Counted from the first letter of the stretch, positions 42,931-64,000 are shown. The stretch: DNA of 64,000 nucleotides from Candidatus Woesearchaeota archaeon (GCA_018664115.1 JABJOX010000004.1:10089-74088); one strand, 5' to 3'. A program made the numbers and translations. The notes: generated from the sequence alone by a model not told the origin.

Positions 42931-43006
42931 AACTTTCCTAAATATTCTTTTTAAGTGTTAGAGAACAGAAAACTTTATAATATTTAGATAAGGGTATGTC
43001 TTTAAT

Positions 43007-44308: not shown

Positions 44309-44310
44309 AA

Positions 44311-45946
<1,636 letters not shown>

Positions 45947-48275: not shown

Positions 48276-49409
48276 TCAACCTTTCAACAACTTTTTCCAA
48301 GTAGATTTCTTTTTCTTTCCTGCTAATTTCTTCCCACCAATTGCAGCCGCTTCTCTCTTAGCATCCCTGGTAACATTCCGAGCAATAACATCCATTCCAT
48401 GCGGGAAACTTGGCGCGTCCCAAGGGAAATTTTCTCCAGAAGTAAATTTCTTCCATAATCTCAAATCAGATTCTACCATCATTTTTACAAGTTCTTTAAA
48501 TTTAATTTCTGCTTCCCAACCAAGTACATCTCTCGCCTTTCTTGCATCTCCACATAATTGATGAACTTCCATTGGTCGATGTAATTTTTGGTCAGATTTA
48601 ACATATTTTTTCCAGTCTAAACCAACAACTTTGAATGCTTCTTCTGCAAATTCTCCTACAGAATATGTTTCCCCAGTAGCAATAACAAAATCATCTGGTT
48701 TATCATGCTGCATCATCATCCACATCATCTTAACAAAATCTCCAGCATAACCCCAGTCTCGTTTAGCGTCTAAATTTCCAAGAACTAATTCTTTTTGTAA
48801 TCCTAATTTGATCTTTGCTACAGAGTTAGTGATTTTTCTAGTAACAAACTCTAATCCTCTGAGTGGACTTTCATGATTAAATAAAATTCCATTACAAGTG
48901 AAGATTCCATAAGAATGACGATAAATTTTTGTCATGTGATAAGCATGCAATTTTGCTGCCGCATAGGGTGAGTTTGGCATCATTGGTGTTCTTTCATCTT
49001 GTGGACATTCTTTTGCTCCTCCAAACAGTTCTGAGGTAGATGCCTGATAAAATTTGATGTTTTTATTCAAATGCCTAATAATTTCTAAAAAACGAGTTGC
49101 TCCACTTGCATCAATTTCTGTTGTGTGTAAAGGCTGATCAAATGATGCTCCAACAAAACTTTGCGCAGCTAAGTTATAAATCTCGTCTGGATTGGAAACA
49201 GTAACCGCTTCTAATAATGAGGACATATCGCTTAAGTCAGCAGGAATCAAAGTAATTTTTTTCAATATGCCTAAATGTTGTAATCGCCAAAAGTTTGGTG
49301 AAGAAGTTCTTCGATAAGTTCCGTAAACTTTGTATCCTTTGCTTAATAATAATCTTGCTAAATATGGCCCATCTTGGCCAGTAATTCCCGTAATTAATGC
49401 TCGTTTCAT
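48276..49409 (-). CDS. gmd: GDP-mannose 4,6-dehydratase (second paralog) with Lys-rich C-terminal tail
   Basis: ALITGITGQDGPYLARLLLSKGYKVYGTYRRTS...NLAAQSFVGASF. The C-terminus AAAIGGKKLAGKKKKSTWKKLLKG is atypical. Confidence 0.85.
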   Translation of the reverse strand: MKRALITGITGQDGPYLARLLLSKGYKVYGTYRRTSSPNFWRLQHLGILKKITLIPADLSDMSSLLEAVTVSNPDEIYNLAAQSFVGASFDQPLHTTEIDASGATRFLEIIRHLNKNIKFYQASTSELFGGAKECPQDERTPMMPNSPYAAAKLHAYHMTKIYRHSYGIFTCNGILFNHESPLRGLEFVTRKITNSVAKIKLGLQKELVLGNLDAKRDWGYAGDFVKMMWMMMQHDKPDDFVIATGETYSVGEFAEEAFKVVGLDWKKYVKSDQKLHRPMEVHQLCGDARKARDVLGWEAEIKFKELVKMMVESDLRLWKKFTSGENFPWDAPSFPHGMDVIARNVTRDAKREAAAIGGKKLAGKKKKSTWKKLLKG

Positions 49410-52340: not shown

Positions 52341-53462
52341 TTAATTTTTTTTATCTTTTAATAATTCTTCATATAATTCAATAAATTGTTGAGTTATTTT
52401 CTCAACAGAGAATTCTTGTGATTTCTGATATGCTTTTTCAACCATCTCCAAATCAGGATTTTTTAAAGCATAAATAATTGTTTCTTGAAGAGATTCGACA
52501 TTTCCTGGCTTGGCCATAAAAACACAACCATCTGCAATTTCTCTTAGCTCAGGCAAATCTGTTGTTACAACTGGAGTTTTACATGCCATTGCTTCAAGTA
52601 AGCAAGAAGGATTTCCTTCAGTTCCTTCTAAATGTGGATAAGGTAAGATAACTAAGTCTGCCATGGCCACATAATCTTCTATTTTTACTTCTTCTGCAAT
52701 AAAATTAATTTGTCTTGCGAACCCTTTCATTTCAAGATAAGATTTGTATTTTAAAGAATAAGTAAAATTTCGTGGAATGCAAATAAATATGTTTTTTTCA
52801 TGTTCTTCCAATATTTTAGGTATTGCTTTTATAAGAATATTTGACCCTTTTATTTCCCATAGTGCTCCATAGTATAAAATTATTTTATTTCCTTCGTACC
52901 CATACTTCCTTTTTAAGGAAAGCCTTTTCAGAGGCATGAACTTATTATGATCAATAAATGATCTCACAACTCTTATCTTATCTTTTGGAACACCTTTTTT
53001 GATTAGTTTATCAGCATGAACATTTGTTGAAACAGTAACAAAATCTGCATATTTTAATAACCAGTAACATGAATTTGCAATATAGCTTATAAATTTATTT
53101 TTTTTCTTAATTTTTATATCCCTTATTATTGGATACGATTTTAAAGTATGTACTAATAATGGTTTTTTTGTGAACAGTTTTGTTAAAAGACTTCTTATAA
53201 ATAATGCAGGTGAGGAACTAACGCTGTAAATAATATCAATTTTTTTTTCTTTTCTCAGGAGAAAAGCTGGGCTGAATAATGTATGTAGGAATCCATTTTT
53301 GAATTCAATTATTGGAATATTTTTTGTATCGATGGTATGCCCTTTTTTCCCGATTATTTTTACATTATGTCCTTTTTCAATTAATTCTTGAGCAAGTTCT
53401 ACTGTTGTAAGAGAAGTAGCTTCTTTTTTCATTAGTCCAGTAGCAAGTATGATGATATTCAT
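52341..53462 (-). CDS. Glycosyltransferase family 4 (GT-B, group 1)
   Basis: EGNPSCLLEAMACKTPVVTTDLPELREI (E-x7-E motif region of GT4). Confidence 0.8.
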   Translation of the reverse strand: MNIIILATGLMKKEATSLTTVELAQELIEKGHNVKIIGKKGHTIDTKNIPIIEFKNGFLHTLFSPAFLLRKEKKIDIIYSVSSSPALFIRSLLTKLFTKKPLLVHTLKSYPIIRDIKIKKKNKFISYIANSCYWLLKYADFVTVSTNVHADKLIKKGVPKDKIRVVRSFIDHNKFMPLKRLSLKRKYGYEGNKIILYYGALWEIKGSNILIKAIPKILEEHEKNIFICIPRNFTYSLKYKSYLEMKGFARQINFIAEEVKIEDYVAMADLVILPYPHLEGTEGNPSCLLEAMACKTPVVTTDLPELREIADGCVFMAKPGNVESLQETIIYALKNPDLEMVEKAYQKSQEFSVEKITQQFIELYEELLKDKKN

Positions 53463-53592
53463 TTTATTTACAATTTAAATCCATCTTATAACCTAAATCC
53501 TCTTTTTCTCTTATTAAAAGAATATTGGAACTATGTTCATTATTGAACAATATTCCGAAAGTCTTTTAAATAATATTGAATAATAAAAAATC

Positions 53593-54132
53593 ATGCCTAT
53601 TAGTCCTAAAACAGTCAGTAAAATAACTCGCGTTGGTCTTTTAAATAGAATTTTTGGGAATATTTATTTGGGGTTAAGATTGTTTTATCAAGAAATGAAA
53701 TGCGCTGAATTTCGTAAAAAATATAATATTCATCCCTCATTTCGTTTTAATGGTCCAGGAACAATTTTCTATGGTGCTGGAAAAATATTTGCTGGTGAGA
53801 ATTCTTATATTGGGCGTTATAGTGCAATTTCTACATCTAAAGGAAATAAGGTGATTATAGGGAAAGGATGTGCTATTAGTCATTTTGTGATGATGTATAC
53901 TACATCAAGAAAAACTAATCAAGATTTTTCTCAGGTTCCGCACCAACAAGAGTTTGGAGATATTATTATTGGACCTTATACCTGGATTGGCGCTCGTGTT
54001 TTTATTAAACACGGTGTGACTATTGGAAAGAATTGCGTAATTGGGGCTAATAGTGTAGTGACAAAAGATATCCCTGATTTTTCTGTTGCTGTTGGTTGTC
54101 CAGCTAGAGTTGTGAAAAAGATAATTATTTAA
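53593..54132 (+). CDS. Left-handed beta-helix (hexapeptide-repeat) acyl/acetyltransferase
   Basis: Hexapeptide repeats WIGARVFIKHGVTIGKNCVIGANSVVTKDIP. Confidence 0.75.
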   Translation: MPISPKTVSKITRVGLLNRIFGNIYLGLRLFYQEMKCAEFRKKYNIHPSFRFNGPGTIFYGAGKIFAGENSYIGRYSAISTSKGNKVIIGKGCAISHFVMMYTTSRKTNQDFSQVPHQQEFGDIIIGPYTWIGARVFIKHGVTIGKNCVIGANSVVTKDIPDFSVAVGCPARVVKKIII

Positions 54133-54790
54133 TTATTTCTCTAATCAACATAAAAGTCTCTGCAGCTTCTAAACATACTTCATTTCCACGTTGTATGGCT
54201 TTTATTTCAGCTCCTTTTAATGATCGTGGATGAGGATATTCTCGCAATTCTGATTTATATAATGACATTGCTTCCCCTTTCTTTGCTAACTCTTGTGAGA
54301 TGTCAATATAAATATTAGGTATAAATGGTGTTGTATATGGTGATGATTGCTCAGTTTCACTTATAACTTCATAACTAAATATTTTTTTAATAAATGGGTT
54401 TATTTTTGGTTTAGCTGCAATTAAAGCACATTGAAAAGTTATTTGATGGTCTTTATGTAAATCCCCTTGATGTGGTATAAATAACTCGTTTGGTTGACAT
54501 TCTTCAATAATTTCTTTTAATTTATGATTAATTTCGTTTTGAGGTACGACATCTAGACTAGCAGCGATAAAATCACAAAAGAATACTTTTTTTATTCCAA
54601 TTAAATTTGCTACTCTTAGGACTTCTTTTCTCTTTTCTTCCAGGACTTCTTTTCCATAGTAAGTTTCTTCTCCTTTAGTCATAATACAAAGAAAAACTTC
54701 ATTTCCTGCTTTAATATTTTTAATTATTGTCCCTCCACAGCCAAGAACTTCGTCATCGGGATGGGGTGCAATTACAAGTATTTTTTTCAT
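54125..54790 (-). CDS. PIG-L/LmbE-family N-acetyl-sugar deacetylase
   Basis: ILVIAPHPDDEVLGCGGTI (PIG-L signature HPDDE) ... HKDH. Confidence 0.85.
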   Translation of the reverse strand: MKKILVIAPHPDDEVLGCGGTIIKNIKAGNEVFLCIMTKGEETYYGKEVLEEKRKEVLRVANLIGIKKVFFCDFIAASLDVVPQNEINHKLKEIIEECQPNELFIPHQGDLHKDHQITFQCALIAAKPKINPFIKKIFSYEVISETEQSSPYTTPFIPNIYIDISQELAKKGEAMSLYKSELREYPHPRSLKGAEIKAIQRGNEVCLEAAETFMLIREIIK

Positions 54791-55485
54791 TAGTAAAATC
54801 CTCCTGAATTTTTAATTATCTCTTTGCTTTCCTTTCCTTTGTTAAAGAGGAGATCAATAATCCCCATATTTGGAAAAAAATTATTATTATCACTGAATCT
54901 TTGTTCATATTGAGGATGTTCAAACCGCTGGTATACCAAAGAGATTCCTGCTTTATTAAATAAATTTTCATCTATATATCCTTTACTTCCTGGTCCGGAT
55001 ATGTAGGTGTTGGCATTGATTGATTTACAAATGTTTATTAATCTTTCATTAGATTTACCACTGATTTTTAATGATGATTCAGTTACGATTTTTATGTTTA
55101 TTCCTAGGTATTCTAATAAGTATTTAATAAGTTCTAAATCTAATTCATGTAATGTTAAGCTTTCTTTGTTTATTATTTTTTTTATTTTCGGAAAAATTTC
55201 ATTAAAATGGGGTGAATTTTTATAATAACATTCAATTGACTTAAGATGTTTTTTTCTCCAAGGTAGCTTATTATTTATTTTAATGTTTTTAATGATTTTA
55301 CTTTCTTTAATAAGAGGTATTGTTAACCACATATATCCATTTGGAGTTATAATTTTATTTCGATGTATAAATCCTTCTTTATTAAACTCAGTGTTATCCA
55401 TAACTACATAAACATCAGCCAATGATAATTTGTGGAAAAAACCAATGTAAGGGAAGTACTGTGGTTGATGTATTACTATTCTCAT
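54790..55485 (-). CDS. WbqC-like family protein
   Basis: MRIVIHQPQYFPYIGFFHKLSLADVYVVMDNTEFNKEGFIHRNKI...GYMWLTIPL matches the characteristic WbqC-like N-terminus. Confidence 0.65.
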   Translation of the reverse strand: MRIVIHQPQYFPYIGFFHKLSLADVYVVMDNTEFNKEGFIHRNKIITPNGYMWLTIPLIKESKIIKNIKINNKLPWRKKHLKSIECYYKNSPHFNEIFPKIKKIINKESLTLHELDLELIKYLLEYLGINIKIVTESSLKISGKSNERLINICKSINANTYISGPGSKGYIDENLFNKAGISLVYQRFEHPQYEQRFSDNNNFFPNMGIIDLLFNKGKESKEIIKNSGGFY

Positions 55486-55492
55486 CTTCTTT

Positions 55493-57217
55493 TCATTTTA
55501 AGTATGATTTAATTATTAGTTGACATATTTTAGTTGTTGCTTTTCCGTCAATTAGTTGTTGTCCTTTTTTTGACATTTCTCTTCGGGTTTCTGTATTTAA
55601 TATCAAGTTTCTTAGTTTCTCTTCTGCTTTACTTATAGTCCATTCATTCTTGTGTCCTAAATATATACTTACTCTTGCATCTTCAAAGGCCTTTGCAAAG
55701 AATTGCTGGTGATCATCATGATTAAAATCATAGGAAGCTGTTAAGCATAAGGTAGGAACACCACATCTCGCAAATTCATACAACACATTTCCACCGCCAG
55801 ATATGCCAATATCTGCTTTAATCATTAATTCTTTTATTTCTTTGACATTATGTAATATTGTGGTATTATCCACTGATTGATAAGTTTCAATTACTTCTTT
55901 TCTGTTTTGTTCACTTATTCCTGGTCCAAGAACCAAAGTAAAATTTTGTTCTGGAAATTTTTCAATTACTTCTTTTAACTTTAAAATCTGGAAACATTGA
56001 TCACCCCCACCTAATAAAACTAGAATCTCTTTAACATCTTCAACTATCTTTGTTGATACATCTTCAAATCCTTTCCTTAATGGCATGTAATTCAAACCCG
56101 AATAGTAGTTAGACTTTGTATTAGAAAAGTTTATTGGGAATGAGTTGATTATAAGGTCTCCTCTAACATTTCTTTCTTTCTCACTGTCGATGAATCTGAC
56201 TCTTAATGATTTACCAAATCTCTCGGAACTTGTATCATCTAAGTATTTTCTTAAATCAGTCACAATAATATCTGGATCTTCTTTAATTATTGATTCTTTG
56301 ATTTTTTCAGCAGGTAAAGAGGAATATCCATATTCATTCAGGAAGTTTCTTGCTTCTTCATTTGAAAAGAATAATATTTCTACTTTTGGTAACATTTCTC
56401 TTAATGATTCACAAATAGTAATACCTCTATATATGTGGCCCATACCTATTTCACCATCTCCATCAGCTCTCACAAATATTTTCAATCTTTTTTTTAAAAT
56501 TATTTCTGGATTAGCGCGTAAAGTTGAGAGAAGGTCTTCAGTTTTATAATAACCATTGTTAACCGGTGTTGTCATATCTACAATTGTTTTCATAAAGTCA
56601 AAATCATCTTGGGTGTCAATAGCAAAACTTATTCTAAAACTTCTTTTTTCTTTAGGAACACTAACCTGTAATATTTTATATTTATCTGGGTGTTGAAGTA
56701 TCCACTCGTCGAGATGTTCACGATGTTCATCGGTTTTAGCTAGTTGAACAGATTCTTTAAATGCTTTACGTGAGATAACTTCTGCTCCGCAAGGAAGCCC
56801 TTCCAAATGATAATAATTAGTACTTAAGTCGCAACCCTCTTTCTCGTGTGCTTCAATCAGGTTGTCAATCTCTTCATAGTCTAGGAAAGGCGAATCAGCA
56901 CAAACTCTAACAATGTTAACAAATTCAGGATTAAGATTTTCAACTATATCATTAAATCTTTCTAAGACGTTATCTTCAGATCCAAAATGTATATTTACTC
57001 CCAATTTTTGAGTAACATTTTCAAGAACCTTATTTTTCTGATCTTTAGAAGTGGCAAGGCAAATTTTATCAATTCTTTTACATCTCTGTAAGATGCTTAA
57101 GGCATGTTCAACAATGGGTTTTCCTCCGATTTCCATCATAATCTTATTTGGTAACCTAGTTGAACCCATTCTTGCTTGGATAATTGCAATTGTTTTTCTG
57201 GGATTATTAGTATACAT
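55493..57217 (-). CDS. Fusion: acylneuraminate/pseudaminate cytidylyltransferase (PseF/NeuA-like) + PseG-like UDP-sugar hydrolase (MurG-like GT-B)
   Basis: N-terminal AIIQARMGSTRLPNKIMMEIGGKPIVEH (CTP_transf_3). After about aa 245: KIFVRADGDGEIGMGHIYRGITI (PseG-like start) and a C-terminal GT-B half. Confidence 0.75.
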   Translation of the reverse strand: MYTNNPRKTIAIIQARMGSTRLPNKIMMEIGGKPIVEHALSILQRCKRIDKICLATSKDQKNKVLENVTQKLGVNIHFGSEDNVLERFNDIVENLNPEFVNIVRVCADSPFLDYEEIDNLIEAHEKEGCDLSTNYYHLEGLPCGAEVISRKAFKESVQLAKTDEHREHLDEWILQHPDKYKILQVSVPKEKRSFRISFAIDTQDDFDFMKTIVDMTTPVNNGYYKTEDLLSTLRANPEIILKKRLKIFVRADGDGEIGMGHIYRGITICESLREMLPKVEILFFSNEEARNFLNEYGYSSLPAEKIKESIIKEDPDIIVTDLRKYLDDTSSERFGKSLRVRFIDSEKERNVRGDLIINSFPINFSNTKSNYYSGLNYMPLRKGFEDVSTKIVEDVKEILVLLGGGDQCFQILKLKEVIEKFPEQNFTLVLGPGISEQNRKEVIETYQSVDNTTILHNVKEIKELMIKADIGISGGGNVLYEFARCGVPTLCLTASYDFNHDDHQQFFAKAFEDARVSIYLGHKNEWTISKAEEKLRNLILNTETRREMSKKGQQLIDGKATTKICQLIIKSYLK

Positions 57218-57219
57218 TT

Positions 57220-58263
57220 TTATGTCCGTTCAGTAATATCTTTCCACCTGATGAAGTCATCTTTTGCAATATCCTTATTAACTTTAGCACCTAGTATGGC
57301 CTCGTAATGTTGGGGCCAAATTCCTTTTCCTGGTCTTTTCACAATAGTATTATTTTCAGTAAGAACTTCACCTTTTTTGATATCTCTCCAGGCAATAAAG
57401 CTTTTTCTGAATCCTTTGGCAGTCTTTTTTTCTCCATCTAGTATTTTCTTTTCTGCTGAACCCAAAGCAGCTTCTGCTATTCTAATGCCTTTACACATTT
57501 CTCTGAATTCATTTGGTTCTAAAGCAAAGAAAGTGTCTGTCCCTGGGTCATTTCTGGAAAGGCAAAAATGTTTCTCAATCATATTTGCACCAATTGCAGC
57601 CGCAGCAATTGGTGTATAGATGTCTGCTGTATGATCTGAAAAACCAACTGGAACGCTAAAAGCAAGTTTATACATTTCCATTACTCTTAAATTTGCATCT
57701 TTGGGGTCATTCGGATAAATAGAAGTTGTTTGAAATAATAAGATGTCTTTGTTTCCTTCTTCCTTAATTGCCTCAATTGCCATTGAAATTTCTGTCATTG
57801 TTGAAATTCCAGTTGACATGAAGATGGGTTTACCTTTTCGTGCAATATACTTTAAAAGAGGGATATTTGTGATTTCGTCTGCGCCAGTTTTGTAGGCATC
57901 GGTCCCTAATTCTTCTAGAAAATCAGTTGTTTCTCGACAACTTGGTGTGGAAAATATAATCATTCCATTTTCTCTAGCGTAATCAAAAATTTGTTGATGT
58001 GACTCTTTATTTACTTCAAATTTTTTACACACCTGGTATTGGTCAATTTCTCCAAGGCCTTTTACTTCAAATCTGGATTGTGGTTGGGCAATCTTATCTG
58101 CAAAGTAAGTTTGTAGTTTTATGGCATCTGCACCAGCGTCTTTTGTATAATCTATCATTTTTTTAGCTTGCTCAATAGTCTCATAATTCCCACCTATTTC
58201 AGCTATTATAAAAATAGGTTGATTTGGTCCAATTATTCTATTAACAACAGTGACTTGTTTCAT
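57220..58263 (-). CDS. Nonulosonic acid synthase (NeuB/PseI/LegI family) with C-terminal SAF domain
   Basis: IAEIGGNYETIEQAKKMIDYTKDAGADAIKLQT (NeuB signature) and a C-terminal antifreeze-like domain (KKGEVLTENNTIVKRPGKG). Confidence 0.85.
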   Translation of the reverse strand: MKQVTVVNRIIGPNQPIFIIAEIGGNYETIEQAKKMIDYTKDAGADAIKLQTYFADKIAQPQSRFEVKGLGEIDQYQVCKKFEVNKESHQQIFDYARENGMIIFSTPSCRETTDFLEELGTDAYKTGADEITNIPLLKYIARKGKPIFMSTGISTMTEISMAIEAIKEEGNKDILLFQTTSIYPNDPKDANLRVMEMYKLAFSVPVGFSDHTADIYTPIAAAAIGANMIEKHFCLSRNDPGTDTFFALEPNEFREMCKGIRIAEAALGSAEKKILDGEKKTAKGFRKSFIAWRDIKKGEVLTENNTIVKRPGKGIWPQHYEAILGAKVNKDIAKDDFIRWKDITERT

Positions 58264-58350
58264 TTTAATCTCTTTTATTTAAAATTTTTCATTTAAATAT
58301 TTTATGAATAAGAATACTATTTTTTTAACAATAGACTTTTCATAATTCAT

Positions 58351-59493
58351 TTAAACTATTTTTTTAATCAATTTTTCGTTTCTAATGTTGCTTTCATCAA
58401 GATGACCGCCTTTCTTTTTTATTTCTTTCATATTTTTAAATTCAAAACCTAAGTCTCCACTGACAACTTCCCGACCACTAATTTTAACTTTTATTGTTTT
58501 TCTCCTATCGCCATCAAAACATTCAGTGCAAGCTTTTAACTTTAATCTTTCACTTTTTAATATTAATTTACGAACTTCTTTTAATTCTTTGCCGAGCCAT
58601 ATTTCTTTAATTGTTTGTTTATTTAAATCTCCAACATAATTACGATCATTGAAATCATTAATGCATTGAACAACTTTACCATTCCAGCAAATAACCATCC
58701 TTTGCCAAGGTACTGGGCAAAAGTAGTAAGGATTTTGATCTTTATTTTTAAGACTATGATCTTGTGTATCATTAACAGCAATTTCATCAACTATTGGGCC
58801 TAATGCATTATAAAACTCTTCAGGATTGTCTTTTATTGCTGAAAATACTGATTGAACTTTTAGAATTGGTTTTTTGGTTCCTTTTTCTTTTTTAATTCTT
58901 TGAATAGTTTTTAATCTTTTTAAAGATTCTTCATATTTAGCAGGGTCTCTGATGGCTTCATAAACTTTACCAGTGCCATCAAAGGAATTTGTAATCCAAT
59001 CAACTCCAGCGTCTACTAGTTTTCTAGACATTTCTTCACTCATATTTAGACCATTTGTAAGGAAAGAAACTTCTTTAATGCCTTTTATTTTAGCATATTT
59101 TATCATATCAACCACTTTTGGATGAATTAGGGGCTCACCCCTCCAACTGAGACGGATAGAATAAACTTTATTTTTTGATGCTTCATCAATAATCTTAGTA
59201 AATAATTCCCACCTCATAAAACCCATTGTTTTATCTTTAAAATTAAATTGTTTTTTCCAGATATTATCTCTATAACACATTGGACATTTCATATTACATG
59301 AATTTGTTGTTTCGAGATCTAAATGGTCTGGGAATTTAGGTAAAATTTTTAATTTTGGATAGATATGCCACTTAATCCTGTTTTTTATAAAAGGAATCAT
59401 GTGGCCTCTACCTCTATTGATAATAAATTTAAGTTTAGTTTTCCAATCAGTAACACTATATTGCATTGAGTGTTTTTTATTATTTATATCCAT
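58351..59493 (-). CDS. Radical SAM protein with SPASM-like C-terminal Cys cluster
   Basis: LETTNSCNMKCPMCYRD (CxxxCxxC) and C-terminal CPVPWQRMVICWNGKVVQC...CTEC. Confidence 0.75.
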   Translation of the reverse strand: MDINNKKHSMQYSVTDWKTKLKFIINRGRGHMIPFIKNRIKWHIYPKLKILPKFPDHLDLETTNSCNMKCPMCYRDNIWKKQFNFKDKTMGFMRWELFTKIIDEASKNKVYSIRLSWRGEPLIHPKVVDMIKYAKIKGIKEVSFLTNGLNMSEEMSRKLVDAGVDWITNSFDGTGKVYEAIRDPAKYEESLKRLKTIQRIKKEKGTKKPILKVQSVFSAIKDNPEEFYNALGPIVDEIAVNDTQDHSLKNKDQNPYYFCPVPWQRMVICWNGKVVQCINDFNDRNYVGDLNKQTIKEIWLGKELKEVRKLILKSERLKLKACTECFDGDRRKTIKVKISGREVVSGDLGFEFKNMKEIKKKGGHLDESNIRNEKLIKKIV

Positions 59494-59575
59494 TTGATAT
59501 TAACTTCCATATTAATGATTTTATTACTTTGATTGTTTAGGTTTTACTTATAAAAGTTGTTGAAAAATACTTTTT

Positions 59576-59935
59576 TTAAATTTCATTCTCTTTGATAAAA
59601 ACAACTTTAGTTCCAATACTCTTTTCAATTTGTTTTTTCCGTTGAAGTAAAGCATCAAGAATAGGTTGTTCATATTTTTCACTATAAATTTTCATGAAAA
59701 TTGGGCTTGGTTGTCTAGAGTTAGTTATTACATTTCGGAGATGAAACAAATCTTTTTCAGTTTCTCCTTTTTTTTTGAGAAAGTAGCAAGGGCGACCCGA
59801 TCCAAACAACTTTTTTTCCACTTTAGTTTTAATTTCGATTCTAAGTGTTTTTTCAACTTCAGATGAAAATTCATTTAAGATTGTTAAAAATTTTATATTT
59901 TTTTCTTTTAGTTCATTTAATTCTTTAAATGTCAT
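59576..59935 (-). CDS. Hypothetical protein (119 aa)
   Basis: ORF with a 4-nt overlap with the upstream gene in the same operon. Confidence 0.35.
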   Translation of the reverse strand: MTFKELNELKEKNIKFLTILNEFSSEVEKTLRIEIKTKVEKKLFGSGRPCYFLKKKGETEKDLFHLRNVITNSRQPSPIFMKIYSEKYEQPILDALLQRKKQIEKSIGTKVVFIKENEI

Positions 59936-61050
59936 ATTGTCACCTTTTTGGCTTTAAGTATCATGAAGCCACCTTCTAGGTCTTCTATTTTATCTAAATA
60001 TACTTCAAACATTTTTTTAATAACCGGTATCCATATTTCTTTCATAGTTTTTCCTAAATCTTTATTTTTGTATTCATCATATTTTTTTATAATATCTACA
60101 GAGAAAGCTCTAGTCCCAATATCAAAGAGTTTAATGAGGTCAGGAGAGGCATAGGTAATTACTTTTTCTAAAATAAATCCTGCTCTTTGTAATTCATCTT
60201 TCCATTCTTCTAGTGACTTTTGGGTTGCGCTATAAACAGATCTTCCACGATCATAATTTACAAACAGTTGTGCTTTTTTTAGATCATTTTTTTCTTCTAA
60301 CTTTTTAGCTTCATTAATGAAGAAAAGATTTTTTTTAAATTTGTTATTTGGGGTTGTTAGGATAAGTTGGCCATCTTTTTGTAGGACTCTATTCACTTCT
60401 TTTAGGATTGGTTGTACATTTTCAAAATCTTTTATTACATTTGAATATACTGTTCTGAATGTTTTTGAAAGATAAGGTAAGTTATGGATGTCACCTTCTA
60501 ATATCTCTTTATACGTATTAAGCATTTGAGCTTTTTTTACTAAACTTTTTTTGATATCAATGCCGGAAGAAATTTTCTCCTCAATTTGATTGGTTAAAAT
60601 AGGGTGATATTCTTCTCCAACGTTATCATAAATATCTTTTTTGTCTAGTTTTACACCCTGAAATGTATCAAACTCTAAAGAAAATTTGTTTCCCTTTGCA
60701 ATTGATAAATTAATCCCATCCCCACATCCGAGATCTAGTAGTGGTTCTTGTAAACAATCCCACTCTTTAAGTATTTCTGCTTCAATTGTTCTCCAAACAG
60801 CTGTTTCTGGACGAAGCCAGTAGACATTAAGATACTGGTCAAAGAAAAGTGAATCAATGATTTGTTTTTTCTTTTCAATTACTTTTTTTTTCTTTTTAGC
60901 AACAACATTCAATAACAATGAAAGAATGAAATCCTTATCTTCTTCAGTATAATCTGAAATTTTTCGAATATTTACTGGACTAACACATTTCTTACAGAAA
61001 AGAACAGTGTTTTCATTTTCTTCTTCACAAACCGAACATTTTTCAAGCAT
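59932..61050 (-). CDS. SAM-dependent methyltransferase with N-terminal Zn-ribbon
   Basis: CSVCEEEN...CKKC (CxxC...CxxC) and LLDLGCGDGINL (motif I). Stop at 59932 forms ATGA with the downstream gene start at 59935. Confidence 0.55.
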   Translation of the reverse strand: MLEKCSVCEEENENTVLFCKKCVSPVNIRKISDYTEEDKDFILSLLLNVVAKKKKKVIEKKKQIIDSLFFDQYLNVYWLRPETAVWRTIEAEILKEWDCLQEPLLDLGCGDGINLSIAKGNKFSLEFDTFQGVKLDKKDIYDNVGEEYHPILTNQIEEKISSGIDIKKSLVKKAQMLNTYKEILEGDIHNLPYLSKTFRTVYSNVIKDFENVQPILKEVNRVLQKDGQLILTTPNNKFKKNLFFINEAKKLEEKNDLKKAQLFVNYDRGRSVYSATQKSLEEWKDELQRAGFILEKVITYASPDLIKLFDIGTRAFSVDIIKKYDEYKNKDLGKTMKEIWIPVIKKMFEVYLDKIEDLEGGFMILKAKKVTI

Positions 61051-62620
61051 CTTCTCTTCCTCTTTGCATAAACTCTTTAATCGAATTAATTATTAAATCT
61101 AATTCTTCTTTAGGTATTCCCGGATACATTGGTAATGTTAAAATTCTGTTTGATATCTCTTCAGTTTTTGGAAGTTCCCCTTTTTTACATTTTTTTTTTT
61201 GATAAAATTTTGTAAGATGAATTGGTGAATAATAAATTCTGCTCATTATTTTATTTTCTGTCAAATGTTTTTGTAATTTGTCTCTGTTTTCTTTATTTTT
61301 TAATTTGATGGTGTACATTTGATAAAAATGATTAGAATTTAAATATGGTTTTGGAACTTCAATATCTTTAAACTCACTTAATTTTTGATTTAGATATGAT
61401 GCGCTACTAATTCTTGATTGCATAATTTCATTGAAATGATTAAGTTGTGATGACCCTAATGCAGCATTCATTGAAGACATACGAAAATTATGCCCCACTT
61501 CAAGATATTCCATCTCATCAGTTGTAGAAAAATAATCTTGACCATTATCAACTCTTCCATGGGATCGTATAAGTTTCATTTTTTCGTATAGATGTTGAGA
61601 ATCAGTAATAACTGCTCCCCCTTCACCAGTTGTAATTAGCTTGTTTTGACAGAAACTTAAGATTGATGCAATACCAAAAGTTCCGCACAATTTTCCATTT
61701 TTTCTGACACCCAATGAATGAGCATTATCTTCTAAGAGATGGATGTTATGTTTGTTTGCAATTTCTTTTAATTTCTCAATATCTTTTGAAACGCCACCAG
61801 CGTAATGTAAAGCTACAATTGCTTTGGTGTTTGCTGTAATCTTTCTTTCAACATCTTCTGCATCCAATCCTAATGTTTCTTCTTCAGACTCGGCAAATAT
61901 TGGAATTCCTCCAGCAAGAATAATGGCATTAGCAGTGGCAATAAATGTAAATGAAGGTACAATAACTTCTTTTCCTTCAACTCCAATTGCTTTATACATC
62001 GCAAAGAGGGCAGAAGTGCCAGAATTGAATGTTAAAGCATATTTGACTCCATTAAATTCAGCTAATTTTTTTTCAAATTCTTCTATTTCCGGTCCTGCAG
62101 CCCAATGCGTCCCTCTTCTGATTACTTTATTTACGGCTTCTACATTATCTTCTGACCATTCTGTTTTGAACAAAGGAATCTTCCATTGATTTGTTTTTTT
62201 AATTTCTCCCCCATTATTGTTGTTCATTATTTTTTTCAAAAATTTAGCAGGGCTACCAATCCAAACTTCATTTGCAGGAATATCTTTATTAACAAAACTC
62301 ATTGCCCCAACGATAGAATTCTCTCCTATAGTGATTCCTGGCATGACCACGCAATGTGAACCTAATGAACTATTTTTTTCTAAAATTATTTTTCCTTTTT
62401 TATTGTCAATATCTGTTCTTGAATAAAGTGAACAATGTGAACCAATCTTGACATTTTCCCCAATGGAAATACTTTCAGAAGCATCAAGTAATGAAAAAGC
62501 CCCAATGTCGGTGTTTCTACTTAATTTTAAGTTCTCTTTATGAAGCACTAACCAATTATATTTATTAAGTTCTCTATTTTTTATCTCTGGTTGTTGCCAA
62601 TTATTGTTTTCGTCATCCAT
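61043..62620 (-). CDS. Fusion: hexapeptide-repeat sugar N-acetyltransferase (PglD/PseH-like) + DegT-family aminotransferase (PglE/PseC-like)
   Basis: N-terminal left-handed beta-helix repeats (IGSHCSLYS...LGSHCVVMPGITIGENSIVGAMSFV). C-terminal DegT motifs (HWAAGPEIEEFEKKLAEF...NSGTSAL...SFCQNKLITTGEGG). Also contains an A11 homopolymer at 61190-61200. Confidence 0.8.
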   Translation of the reverse strand: MDDENNNWQQPEIKNRELNKYNWLVLHKENLKLSRNTDIGAFSLLDASESISIGENVKIGSHCSLYSRTDIDNKKGKIILEKNSSLGSHCVVMPGITIGENSIVGAMSFVNKDIPANEVWIGSPAKFLKKIMNNNNGGEIKKTNQWKIPLFKTEWSEDNVEAVNKVIRRGTHWAAGPEIEEFEKKLAEFNGVKYALTFNSGTSALFAMYKAIGVEGKEVIVPSFTFIATANAIILAGGIPIFAESEEETLGLDAEDVERKITANTKAIVALHYAGGVSKDIEKLKEIANKHNIHLLEDNAHSLGVRKNGKLCGTFGIASILSFCQNKLITTGEGGAVITDSQHLYEKMKLIRSHGRVDNGQDYFSTTDEMEYLEVGHNFRMSSMNAALGSSQLNHFNEIMQSRISSASYLNQKLSEFKDIEVPKPYLNSNHFYQMYTIKLKNKENRDKLQKHLTENKIMSRIYYSPIHLTKFYQKKKCKKGELPKTEEISNRILTLPMYPGIPKEELDLIINSIKEFMQRGREDA

Positions 62621-62622
62621 TT

Positions 62623-63561
62623 TTAATAATTCTCCGGATTTGAAGCAATTTCTTTTGCTACTTGAGTTAATCCATCTTTAACATTTACCTTCGCTTTAAA
62701 TCCCAATAATTGTTCAGCTTTAGTAGTATCTGCTTGTCTTCTGGTAACTAATACTTCACGATCTCTAAAAATGGGTTGGATATCTTTGTCAAGTGCTTGG
62801 ATAATTATTTGTGCTAGTTGTGCTATAGATGTACTGATGCCAGTTCCTACATTGAAAACTTCATTGACTGCTTCAGATTCCATGGCGGCAATATTGGTTT
62901 GAACAACATCTGAGACATGAGTAAAATCCATTGATTGATTTCCTTTACCATCGATTATTGGTGACTCATTATTTATAATTCTCTGGATAAAATGAGTTAC
63001 AACAGTAGTATAATAAGCATGAGCAGCTTGTCTTTCTCCGTAAACATTATAGTAACGTAAGGAATTGTATTTTAATCCTTTTGTTGCTAAATGTTGAAGT
63101 AAATGTTCACAATATAATTTTGCAGCCCCATATGGTTCTTTAGGATAAAGTTGGTCCTCCTCGTGCATAGGTAATCTCTTTGGGTCACCATAAACGCTTG
63201 ATGAAGAAGAGAAAATAACTCTTTTCACACCATGATCAAGGGCAGATTTAAAGATGTTATAAGAACCTTGAATGTTAACTCCTAAACAATCATCTGGAGA
63301 TTTTACACTCGCTTGAATATGAATTGCTGCTGTATGAAAAACATAATCAACGTTTTTCATAGCTAAATCTACAATGTCTTTGTTCCTAATATCTCCTTCA
63401 ATAAATTCTACTTTCCCTTCATCAATTAAATATTGTATAGTTGACTTCTTTCCTTTTATTAATGAGTCCAAAACTTTTACATTTATTCCTTTTTTAACTA
63501 AAGCTTCAACTAAATGACTGCCTATAAAACCAGCCCCTCCTGTTACTAATGCTGCTGTCAT
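62623..63561 (-). CDS. NAD-dependent NDP-sugar epimerase/dehydratase (extended SDR, GalE/WbpP-like)
   Basis: ALVTGGAGFIGSHLVEALV (GxxGxxG), YGAAKLYCE (YxxxK). Confidence 0.85.
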   Translation of the reverse strand: MTAALVTGGAGFIGSHLVEALVKKGINVKVLDSLIKGKKSTIQYLIDEGKVEFIEGDIRNKDIVDLAMKNVDYVFHTAAIHIQASVKSPDDCLGVNIQGSYNIFKSALDHGVKRVIFSSSSSVYGDPKRLPMHEEDQLYPKEPYGAAKLYCEHLLQHLATKGLKYNSLRYYNVYGERQAAHAYYTTVVTHFIQRIINNESPIIDGKGNQSMDFTHVSDVVQTNIAAMESEAVNEVFNVGTGISTSIAQLAQIIIQALDKDIQPIFRDREVLVTRRQADTTKAEQLLGFKAKVNVKDGLTQVAKEIASNPENY

Positions 63562-64000
63562 ATTATCACCCTCTTAATATTATATAATGATTCTTCCAAC
63601 GGTTTGAAAATAAAACCGCATTCTTGTTCTGTAAAAGTACAATCTAATGAATTGTTCTTAGACCGATAACTTTTTTCTTCACTTTTTTTTATAATCACTA
63701 AATTAGTATTAAAACTAAAAAATTTAGCTACCTCTATAGTAAAATCATAAATAGACCTCGTTTTTCCTCCTGCATGAAAAATTCCTGTTTTCTCTTTTTC
63801 AATAATGTTTTTTGTAAGTAGTGCCACATCTTGTACAAAAACTGGACTTTTAATCTGGTCAAAGTGAGCTGTAAATATATCTCCTACTGAGAGCGCATCA
63901 TAAATATAATTAAAAATGGTTTTGTGTTGATATTTTTTTGGTAATCCAAAAATAAGGCACGGCCTTATAATCACATGATTCTTCAATTTTCTAATTATAT
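63558..64000 (-). CDS. SDR-family NDP-sugar reductase, C-terminal portion (RmlD / dTDP-4-dehydrorhamnose reductase-like). The gene runs off the window end.
   Basis: The reading frame stays open to nt 64000. C-terminal GIFHAGGKTRSIYDFTIEVAKFF resembles the RmlD C-terminus (G.YHL.g.g.tSWyDFA). Confidence 0.5.
   Translation of the reverse strand, partial: IIRKLKNHVIIRPCLIFGLPKKYQHKTIFNYIYDALSVGDIFTAHFDQIKSPVFVQDVALLTKNIIEKEKTGIFHAGGKTRSIYDFTIEVAKFFSFNTNLVIIKKSEEKSYRSKNNSLDCTFTEQECGFIFKPLEESLYNIKRVII

Follow-up and report, generated by a model that had tools for sequence, protein, structure and literature searches.

The stretch of DNA analysed here (64,000 nucleotides, hereafter the window) comes from Candidatus Woesearchaeota, consistent with a preliminary description that had referred it to small-genome archaea, and, in this marine DPANN archaeon, bears a genuine operon for a nine-carbon, sialic-acid-like sugar of the cell surface. 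The operon conforms to neither of the textbook pathways and is missing their customary first enzyme; it includes uncharacterised tailoring enzymes that are widely conserved as a set. It occupies minus-strand positions 64000 to 54125 as a densely packed 11-gene series, in the order RmlD-like reductase, GalE-like SDR, acetyltransferase–DegT fusion, SAM methyltransferase, 119-aa protein, radical-SAM/SPASM enzyme, NeuB with SAF domain, cytidylyltransferase–PseG-like fusion, WbqC and PIG-L deacetylase, after which come an acetyltransferase, a GT4 glycosyltransferase and a flippase. According to the gene coordinates, seven of the nine gene boundaries inside the window show an overlap or a gap of at most 8 nt and the remaining two show gaps of 82 and 87 nt, a tenth boundary lying past the window end. 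Because housekeeping NadE (279 bits) sits upstream of the RmlD-like gene, the latter was taken as the start of the operon. ORF and profile searches located all the ORFs named in the preliminary description, whose inventory of positions 52341–63561 had nevertheless left out the methyltransferase, the 119-aa ORF, the radical-SAM/SPASM enzyme and the GT4. The features of the region are:

48276–49409, minus: canonical GDP-mannose 4,6-dehydratase (GMD), 377 aa; TIGR01472 408.5 (cutoff 415), motif ASTSELFG
49539–51026, plus: Wzx-type flippase (Polysacc_synt), 495 aa; conserved in related clusters L087 and L089
51023–52330, plus: P-loop protein (GPDGSGKST), 435 aa; conserved beside GT4 and Wzx
52341–53462, minus: GT4 glycosyltransferase, 373 aa; best named family BshA, 75 bits, far under cutoff
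53593–54132, plus: accessory hexapeptide acetyltransferase, 179 aa, of WbbJ/WcaF/LacA O-acetyltransferase type by family profiles
54125–54790, minus: PIG-L/LmbE-family metal-dependent N-deacetylase, 221 aa; PF02585, 90 bits
54790–55485, minus: WbqC-family protein, 231 aa, proposed amide ligase; PF08889, 246 bits
55493–57217, minus: cytidylyltransferase–PseG-like fusion, one 574-aa ORF; CTP_transf_3 106, Glyco_tran_28_C 38, TIGR03590 (PseG) 98.5 bits
57220–58263, minus: NeuB-family nonulosonic acid synthase with C-terminal SAF domain, 347 aa; NeuB 264, SAF 47 bits
58351–59493, minus: radical-SAM enzyme with SPASM/twitch auxiliary cluster domain, 380 aa; Radical_SAM 60, SPASM 46 bits
59576–59935, minus: conserved small protein, 119 aa; position conserved in relatives
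59932–61050, minus: zinc ribbon (N-terminal CxxC...CxxC) plus class I SAM methyltransferase, 372 aa; Methyltransf_11, 43 bits
61043–62620, minus: hexapeptide acetyltransferase–DegT aminotransferase fusion, 525 aa; DegT 352, Hexapep 41 bits
62623–63561, minus: extended SDR of GalE/WbpP/TviC type (epimerase or oxidoreductase-like), 312 aa; solved-structure matches and motif
63558–64000, minus: RmlD-like NAD(P)-dependent reductase, C-terminal part, first operon gene; RmlD_sub_bind, 34 bits on the fragment

Judged by its sequence, the synthase is a true NeuB-family enzyme, as had been proposed together with its SAF domain. Against solved structures it scored 213 bits with PseI (the C. jejuni enzyme being the top match), 198 with NeuB and 195 with SpsE, versus just 25–30 bits against DAHP synthase models, so that the DAHP-synthase-like grouping named in the preliminary description as a possible objection was not observed. 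Its SDHT and EKHF motifs line up with the matching segments of solved NeuB and PseI, and its equivalog scores were 320 for NeuB (cutoff 400) and 313 for PseI (cutoff 340). The existence of a nonulosonic-acid (NulO) module is thereby supported.

The adjoining 574-aa ORF consists of an SpsF-like cytidylyltransferase domain (residues ~8–243) and an SpsG/PseG-like GT-B domain (~246–570). Its AF2 model (pLDDT 89) showed a TM of 0.86 between the N-domain and the Leptospira protein 6oew, the best solved match of the cytidylyltransferase, and a MurG-like GT-B fold for the C-domain. The catalytic-looking motifs QARMGSTRLPNK and RxDG...GMGH are intact, and R16, K25, G258 and G260 were invariant among 19 sequences. 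The exact protein was found on 20 independently assembled contigs (Logan, NCBI, JGI and ENA assemblies) and fused orthologues are known at 45–53% identity. The fusion and its PseG-like half had been correctly described, but the PseF/NeuA-type identity proposed for the other half was ruled out by a score of 26 bits against PseF (TIGR03584; cutoff 205.7) and by 6oew as top match; by sequence, this domain is assigned to the SpsF type. Among 80 loci encoding SpsF-type cytidylyltransferases, each fetched with at most 10 kb of flanking sequence per side, 67 also contained a NeuB homologue. Since SpsF–SpsG fusions are widespread in bacteria and methanogens, the architecture is not new or noteworthy, contrary to the earlier view. 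In Bacillus subtilis, spsG and spsE are needed for making Leg and spsF for its transfer (PMC7439481). This SpsE/F/G route is closer to the pathway considered here than canonical Pse or Campylobacter Leg biosynthesis.

The WbqC and PIG-L genes, both recognised in the preliminary description, share a 1-nt overlap, and WbqC adjoins PIG-L in 30 of 32 loci. The AF2 model of WbqC (pLDDT 94.6) predicts a Rossmann-like, BshC-like fold with class-I aminoacyl-tRNA-synthetase-like nucleotide binding (HUP class). Its top Foldseek match in the PDB was the bacillithiol ligase BshC (4wbd; prob 0.99, E 1.1e-3, TM 0.47), a weak likeness at the level of fold only, and a search for sequence-level signal between the two proteins gave none. 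To our knowledge, the ligase activity of BshC itself has never been shown in vitro. PIG-L has an APHPDDE motif and BshB1 as best named family (74 bits). WbqC was also found fused to GNAT and to Bac_transf (PglC-like phosphoglycosyl transferase) domains, and the DPANN NulO cluster L173 encodes both a fusion of PIG-L with a NeuC-like domain and a fusion of NeuB with a formyltransferase. The recurrent WbqC/PIG-L pairing and the weak BshC likeness of the WbqC model together suggest an N-acyl exchange in which PIG-L deacetylates and WbqC religates. The N-acyl remodelling put forward earlier is thus plausible, with comparative support, minus its third proposed member: the 179-aa acetyltransferase, present as described on the plus strand and convergent with the operon, looks by sequence like an O-acetyltransferase, and its absence from the related clusters L087 and L089 makes a role in the remodelling trio improbable. 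A 5-N-formyl-Leg is known in Halorubrum (PMC6137143).

The radical-SAM enzyme contains a CNMKCPMC motif, and the best solved match of its auxiliary domain is BtrN. The enzyme further aligns with TIGR04321, a family of SpsF-like–radical-SAM fusions, over the C-terminal half of that family, and orthologues (230–303 bits) occur in NeuB/SpsF/WbqC/PIG-L cassettes of Proteobacteria and metagenomes. The core formed by radical-SAM, NeuB, SpsF, SpsG, WbqC and PIG-L is kept in Rhizobium, Neorhizobium, Methylotenera, Propionivibrio and Sulfurimonadaceae, as well as in a deltaproteobacterium, metagenome contigs and other DPANN. Two bacterial cassettes (L066 and L077) are without an aminotransferase, and the conserved core itself therefore needs no 7-amino sugar.

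Upstream of this core, the 525-aa protein comprises an N-terminal left-handed beta-helix (LbH) acetyltransferase (residues ~20–135), a linker of ~17 aa and a DegT-family sugar aminotransferase (~148–520). The exact protein was found on 13 independently assembled contigs, and about 25 fused relatives include orthologues at 47–71% identity. Relative L174 encodes the two halves in separate neighbouring genes, an acetyltransferase of 129 aa and an aminotransferase of 378 aa, and each product shares 68% identity with its counterpart in the fusion. Combined with the data for the 574-aa protein, these observations indicate that neither fusion is an artefact, a concern raised in the preliminary description. 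The acetyltransferase half had been called PglD-like, an identity ruled out by the absence of the PglD N-domain and by a best solved match (60 bits) to an O-acetyltransferase-like LbH protein. For the aminotransferase, proposed as PglE/PseC-like, family scores were 285 for PseC (best named), 248 for WecE and 238 for LegC, all under their cutoffs. Among solved structures it matched perosamine synthase at 188 bits and PseC at 176 bits, and its JGI annotation reads perosamine synthetase. Fused relatives adjoin genes for CBS-PglF-like dehydratases, NeuC-like proteins, NeuB and CTP_transf_3 proteins, that is, Leg-type clusters. The methyltransferase and aminotransferase genes share 8 nt, and relatives encode the same aminotransferase with a C-terminal fusion to this methyltransferase (640–774 aa; 764 aa in L087). 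Profile searches found no family for the 119-aa protein, and proteins of 115–119 aa hold the equivalent position in L087, L088 and L174.

The RmlD-like gene, cut by the window end and rightly described as a fragment, encodes a complete protein of 297 aa in L001/L176, which scores 124 bits against TIGR01214 (rmlD) and has dTDP-4-dehydrorhamnose reductases as top solved matches. The extended SDR, also present as described, matches 6dnt (177 bits), UDP-glucose 4-epimerase (173 bits) and WbpP (143 bits). It is not recognisable as a 4,6-dehydratase: it scored 173 against LegB (TIGR04180; cutoff 475) and 73 against PseB, and its motif, SSSSSVYG...YGAAK, lacks the catalytic Asp/Glu and corresponds to an epimerase-type active site, whereas SDRs of the bacterial cassettes carry STSEVYG. 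In an unrelated context (L175), an orthologue of the SDR (68% identical) again adjoins a 63%-identical aminotransferase.

No HexNAc 4,6-dehydratase of PseB, PglF or LegB type was found in the operon, the 64-kb window or the 10 kb upstream; the only 4,6-dehydratase in the window is the canonical GMD, 3 kb from the operon. The absence of any 4,6-dehydratase nearby had been named as evidence against the proposed pathway, and this objection is half borne out. For this reason the di-N-acylated, Pse/Leg-like nine-carbon product is only partly supported: the NulO module stands, but a di-N-acylated 9-deoxy structure is unproven. As the NeuB, PseG, PseC and LegB scores are all under equivalog cutoffs, they do not allow the stereochemistry and deoxygenation pattern of the product to be called.

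Beyond the operon, GT4 directly follows PIG-L in L087 and L089 and is absent from the bacterial cassettes. Homologues of the P-loop protein adjoin GT4, Wzx or Epimerase_2-like genes in L087, L089, L090, L091, L173 and L176; counterparts of 453 and 494 aa (L089 and L173) match NTP_transf_5, weakly in L089.

We consider it somewhat better than an even chance that the region directs the synthesis and export of a tailored, CMP-activated NulO on a surface glycan, following the SpsE/SpsF/SpsG logic of the B. subtilis legionaminic-acid pathway, unlike canonical PseBCHGIF/LegBCHGIF. The GalE-like SDR, RmlD-like reductase, acetyltransferase–aminotransferase and methyltransferase would convert an NDP-HexNAc to an NDP-acetamido-amino sugar, 6-deoxygenation not being assured. 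PIG-L would act on the nucleotide sugar, stripping its inherited 2-N-acetyl group, and WbqC would place a different acid on the free amine, which would become N5 of the NulO. From family assignments, with chemistry by analogy, the SpsG/PseG-like domain would hydrolyse the NDP-sugar, NeuB would condense the free sugar with PEP and the SpsF-like domain would activate the product with CTP; with SpsF and SpsG in one protein, the fusion thus brackets the step of NeuB, encoded by the neighbouring gene. The radical-SAM/SPASM enzyme may add further tailoring, possibly an oxidation or epimerisation, and GT4, the Wzx flippase and the conserved P-loop protein would serve in transfer and export.

An unlikely, though not negligible, alternative is that one operon serves two sugars, the front module (RmlD-like reductase, SDR, acetyltransferase–aminotransferase and methyltransferase) making a separate N-acetylated/methylated amino-deoxy sugar, such as N-acetylperosamine from the GDP-4-keto-6-deoxymannose supplied by the nearby GMD, and the core converting a simpler HexNAc-derived precursor to a 5-amino rather than 5,7-diamino NulO. 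The bacterial cores without aminotransferase, the SDR–aminotransferase pair moving as a unit in L175, the perosamine synthase match and JGI label of the aminotransferase, the proximity of GMD, and the synteny of the front triad with NadE in L090, where the downstream NulO genes differ, all point this way. However, fused aminotransferase relatives reside in Leg-type clusters with PglF-like dehydratases and NeuB, L174, and in part L087, retain the order precursor module, radical-SAM, NeuB, SpsFG, and the operon contains no second NDP-sugar-forming enzyme set for the core. It is quite improbable that GT4, PIG-L and WbqC instead form a BshA/BshB/BshC-like (or MshA/B/C-like) trio, independent of nonulosonic acid, that attaches GlcNAc to an acceptor, deacetylates it and ligates an amino acid to yield a GlcN-based conjugate. 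The best named families of GT4 and PIG-L, the top fold match of WbqC, the PIG-L–GT4 order kept in L087 and L089, and the presence of NeuB beside the WbqC/PIG-L pair in just 5 of 34 loci (of at least 6 kb) are in its favour; yet every Bsh score is far under cutoff, bacterial cassettes hold WbqC and PIG-L as overlapping genes within the NeuB–SpsF–SpsG run without GT4, a NeuC-like NulO enzyme of L173 carries a fused PIG-L, and the WbqC–PglC-like fusion points to a nucleotide-sugar substrate.

That the locus encodes canonical pseudaminic acid biosynthesis (PseB, C, H, G, I, F) by way of partly fused enzymes, as the title of the preliminary description suggests, has very little probability. The PseG-like domain, the PseI match of the synthase and PseC as best named family of the aminotransferase agree with it, but neither PseB nor a Polysacc_synt_2 dehydratase/5-epimerase was found in the window and the adjoining 10 kb, a GNAT PseH is missing from the operon, the PseF score is far from its cutoff, PseI, PseC and PseG each fall under theirs, and NeuB-type and PseI-type models tie on the synthase (320 versus 313). 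Only slightly more credit is given to a Kdn-like route from GDP-mannose in which GMD would make GDP-4-keto-6-deoxymannose and the 525-aa fusion would yield GDP-N-acetylperosamine from it by amination and acetylation. After hydrolysis of this product by the SpsG-like domain, NeuB would form 7-acetamido-7,9-dideoxy-Kdn, no 2-epimerase being needed because the manno configuration is already there. We know of no such sugar. GMD as the only true 4,6-dehydratase nearby, the perosamine synthase resemblance, and the use of a simple PseG-like hydrolase rather than a NeuC-like hydrolysing 2-epimerase would fit such a route, which, however, leaves PIG-L with no inherited N-acetyl group to remove. Moreover, oppositely oriented genes separate GMD from the operon, and GMD is grouped with a second GMD-like gene, a C-methyltransferase and another aminotransferase in what looks like a pathway of its own.

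The 3' end of the window holds a real nonulosonic acid (NulO) locus of a marine DPANN archaeon (Candidatus Woesearchaeota), in which the assembly enzymes are of the Sps type, the early steps are unconventional and a conserved set of tailoring genes is uncharacterised. It comprises 11 consecutive genes, all read from the minus strand, between the window end and 54125. At seven of the nine junctions inside the window the genes overlap or are separated by no more than 8 nt, and the two remaining gaps measure 82 and 87 nt. A housekeeping NadE gene (279 bits, above cutoff) lies upstream of the RmlD-like gene, which is therefore the start of the operon. The operon and its neighbours are the following:

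63558-end, minus: RmlD-like reductase, truncated by the window end (297 aa in L001 and L176)
62623-63561, minus: extended SDR of 312 aa (SDR312)
61043-62620, minus: LbH (hexapeptide) acetyltransferase and DegT aminotransferase in a single 525-aa ORF
59932-61050, minus: Zn-ribbon and SAM methyltransferase
59576-59935, minus: 119-aa protein
58351-59493, minus: radical-SAM/SPASM enzyme
57220-58263, minus: NeuB with SAF domain
55493-57217, minus: CTP_transf_3 and PseG-like domain in a single 574-aa ORF
54790-55485, minus: WbqC
54125-54790, minus: PIG-L deacetylase
53593-54132, plus: hexapeptide acetyltransferase, convergent with the operon
52341-53462, minus: GT4 glycosyltransferase
51023-52330, plus: P-loop protein of 435 aa
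49539-51026, plus: Wzx flippase
48276-49409, minus: GDP-mannose 4,6-dehydratase (GMD)

All ORFs named in the preliminary description were correctly recognised, and the methyltransferase, the 119-aa ORF, the radical-SAM enzyme and the GT4 gene had been left out of it. Exact copies of eight window proteins are found under NCBI names in Woesearchaeota MAGs (e.g. MBT4804650.1). The GC content of the window is about 30%, and a tRNA scan of it detected no tRNA.

Both fused ORFs had been pointed out previously, with the caution that read support was needed against frameshift artefacts. An exact copy of the 574-aa protein was found on 20 contigs of unrelated assemblies (Logan, NCBI, JGI and ENA) and one of the 525-aa protein on 13, and fused orthologues share 45–53% and 47–71% identity with them, respectively. 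In the DPANN contig L174, where the complete operon is present with unchanged gene order, two adjacent genes encode the acetyltransferase (129 aa) and the aminotransferase (378 aa) separately, each product being 68% identical to the corresponding half of the 525-aa protein, indicating that this fusion arose by the joining of neighbouring genes; in the window protein a linker of about 17 aa connects the two halves. Identical proteins on 13–20 independent contigs, together with fused and unfused orthologues, discard a frameshift or assembly artefact and establish both fusions as genuine. NCBI record MBT4804655.1 hides the fusion: its sole annotated product, an aminotransferase of 394 aa, begins at an internal Met, and the acetyltransferase half, which belongs to the same continuous ORF, is uncalled.

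The 574-aa fusion, considered noteworthy at first, turned out to have a common architecture. Relatives of about 590 aa, covering 97–99% of its length and mostly named 'SpsF', occur in Geoalkalibacter, Desulfuromonas, Rhizomicrobium, several Bacillaceae, Methanoregula, Methanobacterium and others, and this wide spread across bacteria and methanogens means that the SpsF-SpsG fusion is not new. Other DPANN NulO clusters (L173 5207-8903; L091 3585-5774; L172 3015-4577 and 15979-17601) are rich in fusions of further types: NeuB+SAF+formyltransferase (603 aa), Epimerase_2+PIG-L (614 aa), AP_endonuc_2+NeuB+SAF (729 aa), CTP_transf_3+short-chain dehydrogenase (520 aa) and Epimerase_2+hexapeptide (540 aa). 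NulO genes of DPANN archaea are unusually prone to fusion, and the fusions serve as Rosetta stones for pathway order.

The identity of the synthase is well supported. Its NeuB domain (PF03102, 264 bits) spans residues 36–272 and its SAF domain (PF08666, 47 bits) residues 288–343, and it aligns over nearly the full length to PseI 8h2c and NeuB 1xuu. Against the solved PseI, NeuB and SpsE proteins it scored 213, 198 and 195 bits, and against the NeuB and PseI models 320 and 313 bits, compared to only 20–30 bits against DAHP synthase models; the alternative contemplated in the preliminary description, a grouping with DAHP or KDO-8-P synthases, thus falls away. The protein remained below the equivalog cutoffs of both NeuB (TIGR03569, 319.9 versus 399.65) and PseI (TIGR03586, 312.7 versus 340.25), and therefore its product cannot be named.

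The N-terminal half of the 574-aa fusion contains a CTP_transf_3 domain (PF02348, 106 bits) with the nucleotide-binding motif QARMGSTRLPNK, in which R16 and K25 are invariant. Its fold matches 6oew, CMP-Kdo synthetases and one CMP-Neu5Ac synthetase, and the proteins most closely related to it are 6oew, which is from Leptospira, and proteins named SpsF. It was initially taken for a PseF/NeuA-type enzyme; with 26 bits against the PseF model TIGR03584 (cutoff 205.7), it is of the SpsF type instead. Among 80 loci of this SpsF-type family, fetched with up to 10 kb of flank per side, 67 contained a NeuB homologue. The AF2 model of the fusion (pLDDT 89) consists of an N-terminal cytidylyltransferase (6oew, TM 0.86) and a C-terminal MurG-like GT-B domain (TM 0.66–0.77 to MurG structures, normalised to target). 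This second half matches Glyco_tran_28_C (38 bits) and positions 2–269 of the 280 of the PseG model TIGR03590, with 98.5 bits against an equivalog cutoff of 153.55. It carries an RxDG...GxGH motif (FVRADGDGEIGMGH, residues 248–261) in which R250, D252, G258 and G260 are invariant and the His, which we take to be catalytic from the literature on C. jejuni PseG, is present in 17 of 19 fused homologues.

Synthesis of legionaminic acid (Leg) in B. subtilis requires spsC, D, E, G and M, and its transfer requires spsF (PMC7439481). By analogy with the genetics of spsG, the SpsG-like domain is predicted to be a hydrolase of an NDP-2,4-diacetamido sugar rather than a transferase (PMC7439481). The sps genetics make a three-step assembly the best reading of the NeuB, SpsF-like and SpsG-like trio: the SpsG-like domain would hydrolyse the NDP-sugar, NeuB would condense the free sugar with PEP, and the SpsF-like domain would activate the resulting NulO with CMP, the 574-aa fusion catalysing in this scheme both steps that flank NeuB.

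The supply of the sugar precursor is the unconventional part. No NDP-HexNAc dehydratase of the PseB, PglF or LegB type was found in any ORF of the window nor in the 10 kb upstream. The lack of any 4,6-dehydratase in the neighbourhood had been named in advance as an observation that would count against the pathway; the only one present is the canonical GMD, 3 kb off. Three other genes could be considered for the role. 4,6-Dehydratases have a Ser/Thr-Tyr-Lys triad and an acid/base residue next to the Ser/Thr, as in the reference motifs TDE, TSE and STDK. SDR312 has the motif SSSSSVYG, without the acid/base residue, where the SDRs of equivalent bacterial cassettes have STSEVYG and those beside methanogen SpsFG genes have STDKS or STDKA. 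Its closest relatives are UDP-hexose and UDP-HexNAc 4-epimerases (6dnt, 177 bits; WbpP, 143 bits; TviC model, 146 bits), and it stays below the dehydratase cutoffs of PseB (73 versus 408) and LegB (173 versus 475). Active-site motif and closest structures thus rule it out as a LegB-like dehydratase. The RmlD-like gene, which is not conserved in bacterial cassettes, encodes an ordinary RmlD-type reductase and is not a hidden dehydratase. A second GMD-family protein (44834-45946, plus strand), 48% identical to the canonical GMD at 48276-49409, is an unlikely substitute for LegB: its motif, VSSNMFG, has no catalytic Glu, and the replacement of TSE by SSN makes dehydratase activity improbable. The protein may instead act as a reductase of the Rmd type, and the genes around it (40148-45946) encode a GNAT, a sugar C-methyltransferase, a LegC-like aminotransferase and a WbuC cupin. 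The absence of the dehydratase turns the first steps of the pathway into a testable question.

The aminotransferase half of the 525-aa fusion (PF01041, DegT/DnrJ/EryC1, 352 bits over residues 157–514) is below the equivalog cutoffs of PseC (285 versus 423.5) and LegC (238 versus 420), and its scores against solved structures are 188 bits for perosamine synthase, 176 for PseC and 165 for ArnB. The genomic context of its relatives favours a Bac/Leg type. The acetyltransferase half had been described as PglD-like; it comprises the LbH part only, aligned to positions 116–202 of the 202 of NeuD, and has no N-terminal nucleotide-sugar-binding PglD_N domain. Its best solved match is the galactoside O-acetyltransferase-like protein SACOL2570 (60 bits). 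One relative, of 621 aa, combines PglD_N, Hexapep and DegT. In three DPANN contigs (L091, L172 and L173), distant relatives of the fusion (49–52% identity) directly adjoin CBS-PglF-like dehydratases, as well as NeuC-like, NeuB and CTP_transf_3 genes; these clusters are of the Leg type. In the lineage of the window (with L090 and L174), the place of the dehydratase beside the aminotransferase is taken by the pair of RmlD-like and GalE-like SDR genes. An SDR and an aminotransferase, 68 and 63% identical to those of the window, are also paired in an unrelated context. On this evidence, the 525-aa fusion is still the probable source of a diamino sugar's second acetamido group.

Comparison of 80 SpsF loci and 80 WbqC loci with the window proteins revealed a recurrent cassette of radical-SAM/SPASM, NeuB, SpsF, SpsG, WbqC and PIG-L genes, often with the methyltransferase, in which the radical-SAM/SPASM proteins score 230–303 bits to the window enzyme. 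It was found in Rhizobium hidalgonense, Neorhizobium, Methylotenera, Propionivibrio, a Sulfurimonadaceae MAG, a deltaproteobacterium and several metagenome contigs, and in the DPANN relatives L087, L089 and L174. The precursor module ahead of it is variable: bacteria have a sugar-1-phosphate nucleotidyltransferase, a dehydratase-type SDR and a second SDR, two cassettes (L066 and L077) lack an aminotransferase, and the archaeal set consists of the RmlD-like, GalE-like, acetyltransferase, aminotransferase and methyltransferase genes.

Three Rosetta-stone fusions support functional coupling of these genes. Relatives of 640–774 aa fuse the aminotransferase to the methyltransferase. TIGR04321 ('spiro-SPASM') combines an SpsF-like and a radical-SAM/SPASM part, and the window SpsF-like domain (46 bits) and radical-SAM enzyme (52 bits) match its respective halves. 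EpaA of Acinetobacter baumannii prophages, which tailors pseudaminic acid (Pse), is a CTP_transf_3 domain fused to an aldo-keto reductase (PMC12053666), so that here too the cytidylyltransferase is joined to a second NulO-pathway enzyme. In the window, by contrast to both cases, the SpsF-like domain is joined to the putative NDP-sugar hydrolase, and a gene of its own encodes the radical-SAM enzyme. The latter contains the CNMKCPMC motif and matches PF04055 (60 bits) and SPASM (PF13186, 46 bits); it reaches no equivalog cutoff, and its auxiliary domain aligns best to the sugar dehydrogenase BtrN, with only 27.6 bits. In L087 (3603-4071) and L174 (10708-11176), a [2Fe-2S] ferredoxin of 89 aa and a 65-aa ORF lie between the small-protein and radical-SAM genes, where the window has an 82-bp gap and neither of them. 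A role for this ferredoxin as reductant of the radical-SAM enzyme is plausible.

The PIG-L protein (PF02585, 90 bits) has an APHPDDE metal-binding motif at residues 8–14 and scored 74 against BshB1 (cutoff 182.5), and is therefore not a bacillithiol enzyme. WbqC covers positions 1–217 of the 218 of PF08889 (246.5 bits), a family of 18,185 representatives (50%-identity clusters) at E ≤ 1e-3. Among 32 WbqC loci flanked by 1.5 kb or more of sequence on each side, a PIG-L gene was present in 30, within 1.5 kb in 27 and adjacent or overlapping in 17, and a DegT aminotransferase in 18. NeuB was found in only 5 of the 34 WbqC loci of at least 6 kb, which points to WbqC/PIG-L as a general amino-sugar module recruited by the NulO cassette. 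Across the loci surveyed (L092–L171; P0391–P0539), the two genes form a near-obligate pair, for the most part away from NulO clusters and usually accompanied by a DegT aminotransferase. WbqC is also found fused to GNAT in both orders (597 and 505 aa), to a PglC-type phosphoglycosyl transferase (Bac_transf, 423 aa) and to itself in tandem (489 and 494 aa); the GNAT and PglC-type fusions fit an action of WbqC on the amine of a nucleotide-sugar.

BshC is the putative cysteine ligase that acts after the PIG-L enzyme BshB in bacillithiol synthesis. The AF2 model of WbqC (pLDDT 94.6) has BshC 4wbd as its top solved match (probability 0.99, E 1.1e-3, TM 0.47), followed by class-I aminoacyl-tRNA-synthetase-like (Rossmann-type, HUP-class) folds. 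At the sequence level, no link to BshC was detected in NCBIfam (E up to 10) or with the WbqC profile against PDB sequences, nor any link to another solved structure among PDB sequences. The literature searched contained no characterised WbqC member, and nothing informative on WbqC, on NulOs with radical SAM or PIG-L, or on DPANN NulOs. The side-by-side occurrence in the window of a GT4, a PIG-L deacetylase and a BshC-like fold (WbqC) recalls bacillithiol and mycothiol synthesis (BshA/B/C; MshA/B/C/D), and the shared logic would be that an N-acetyl amino sugar is deacetylated and an acid is then ligated to the amine; WbqC-GNAT fusions parallel the order MshC then MshD. By contrast, the window GT4 and PIG-L scores are far under the Bsh cutoffs, WbqC (231 aa) has no sequence match to BshC (540 aa), and the context is glycan/NulO and not thiol biosynthesis.

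In L173, one protein joins a PIG-L domain to a NeuC-like enzyme and another joins NeuB to a formyltransferase, which fits removal of the inherited N-acetyl group followed by its replacement. From the WbqC/PIG-L pairing, the L173 fusions, the BshC-like fold and the WbqC fusions, we infer that PIG-L would deacetylate the sugar and WbqC would then ligate a different acid. The N-acyl remodelling proposed in the preliminary description is upheld in spirit by the PIG-L and WbqC evidence, and the 179-aa acetyltransferase included in it, which belongs to the O-acetyltransferase type and has no counterpart in L087 or L089, is probably not involved. An archaeal NulO with a non-acetyl N5 group is known: 5-N-formyl-legionaminic acid, on the N-glycan of Halorubrum sp. 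PV6 (PMC6137143).

A bolder reading, which we regard as rather improbable, is that the core of radical-SAM/SPASM, NeuB, SpsF, SpsG, WbqC and PIG-L specifies an undescribed class of NulO. The N5 acyl group would then be exchanged by PIG-L on the nucleotide-sugar and an ATP-dependent, BshC-like ligation by WbqC. In the archaeal variant, which lacks a 4,6-dehydratase, addition of the second amino group would involve no classical 6-deoxygenation; either the radical-SAM enzyme or the GalE-like SDR would supply the keto group, and the product would be a 9-hydroxy 5,7-diamino NulO, or one deoxygenated late by radical chemistry. If true, this would give the WbqC family (about 18,000 clusters at 50% identity) its first function and describe a general route to unusual N-acyl or N-aminoacyl amino sugars of O-antigens and archaeal glycans. 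The enzymes that install the varied N-acyl groups of pseudaminic and legionaminic acids are largely unknown (PMC5378307), and the locus offers a widely conserved candidate pair, PIG-L and WbqC, plus the radical-SAM enzyme, all three testable in vitro.

Among characterised NulO systems, the Leg pathway of B. subtilis (SpsM, C, D, G, E, F; Dubois et al. 2020, PMC7439481) shares with the window the SpsF-type cytidylyltransferase, the PseG-like SpsG, the NeuB-family SpsE and a DegT aminotransferase. Unlike sps, the window has no SpsM/PglF-like dehydratase, an LbH acetyltransferase stands in place of the GNAT SpsD, and SpsF and SpsG are fused. Five window genes (methyltransferase, 119-aa protein, radical-SAM/SPASM, WbqC and PIG-L) are additional, and to our knowledge none of them is present at the sps locus. 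With the Pse pathway of Campylobacter and Helicobacter (PseB, C, H, G, I, F), the PseG-like domain, the NeuB-family synthase, a DegT enzyme and a CTP_transf_3 enzyme are shared; however, every shared enzyme is below its Pse equivalog cutoff, PseB and the GNAT PseH are missing, and the cytidylyltransferase is not PseF-type. The Leg pathways (LegB, C, H, G, I, F) of Campylobacter jejuni and Halorubrum sp. PV6 (PMC6137143) have in common with the operon an LbH N-acetyltransferase, a DegT enzyme and a NeuB-family synthase, whereas a LegB-type dehydratase and a NeuC-like LegG are absent, the latter with a PseG-like domain instead.

The glycan island extends over at least 56 kb, a large share of a small genome, and documents the investment of DPANN archaea, whose life depends on host-cell contact, in elaborate acidic surface sugars. 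Its 8046-21108 part encodes a UDP-glucose dehydrogenase, a GATase, three GT2, a CMP kinase, a B12-binding radical-SAM protein, another radical-SAM protein, a sulfotransferase, a second Wzx and two CDP-alcohol phosphatidyltransferases. The P-loop protein at 51023-52330 (plus strand; about 435–495 aa in the family) recurs beside GT4, Wzx and a weakly Epimerase_2-like gene of about 525 aa in many DPANN glycan loci (window, L087, L089, L090, L091, L173 and L176); it has the P-loop GPDGSGKST, dTMP-kinase-like similarity and, in some relatives, an NTP_transf_5-like N-terminus. About 5 kb past the window end, strains vary (L176 2806-4394 versus L177 345-1934 and L178 2588-4177): two assemblies have an intact gene for a weakly Epimerase_2-like protein of 529 aa, and a JGI contig has ORFs of 403 and 117 aa instead, representing either a frameshift or a different allele. 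At 21177-29343 (minus strand), a 1515-aa protein with CTP_transf_like, PEP-utilizers, PPDK_N and NTP_transf_3 domains, named L-glutamine-phosphate cytidylyltransferase by JGI, neighbours a Peptidase_C26/GATase (233 aa) and a 933-aa ATP sulfurylase/APS kinase. The pattern resembles that of the Campylobacter O-methyl-phosphoramidate genes Cj1415-Cj1418, here partly fused; a pathway of that type, if such it is, would be unexpected in an archaeon. At 30367-33575, a fusion of 5-formyl-THF cyclo-ligase and FolD (478 aa) has a formyltransferase (282 aa) and GT2 genes in its vicinity, suggesting synthesis of an N-formylated sugar by another part of the island.
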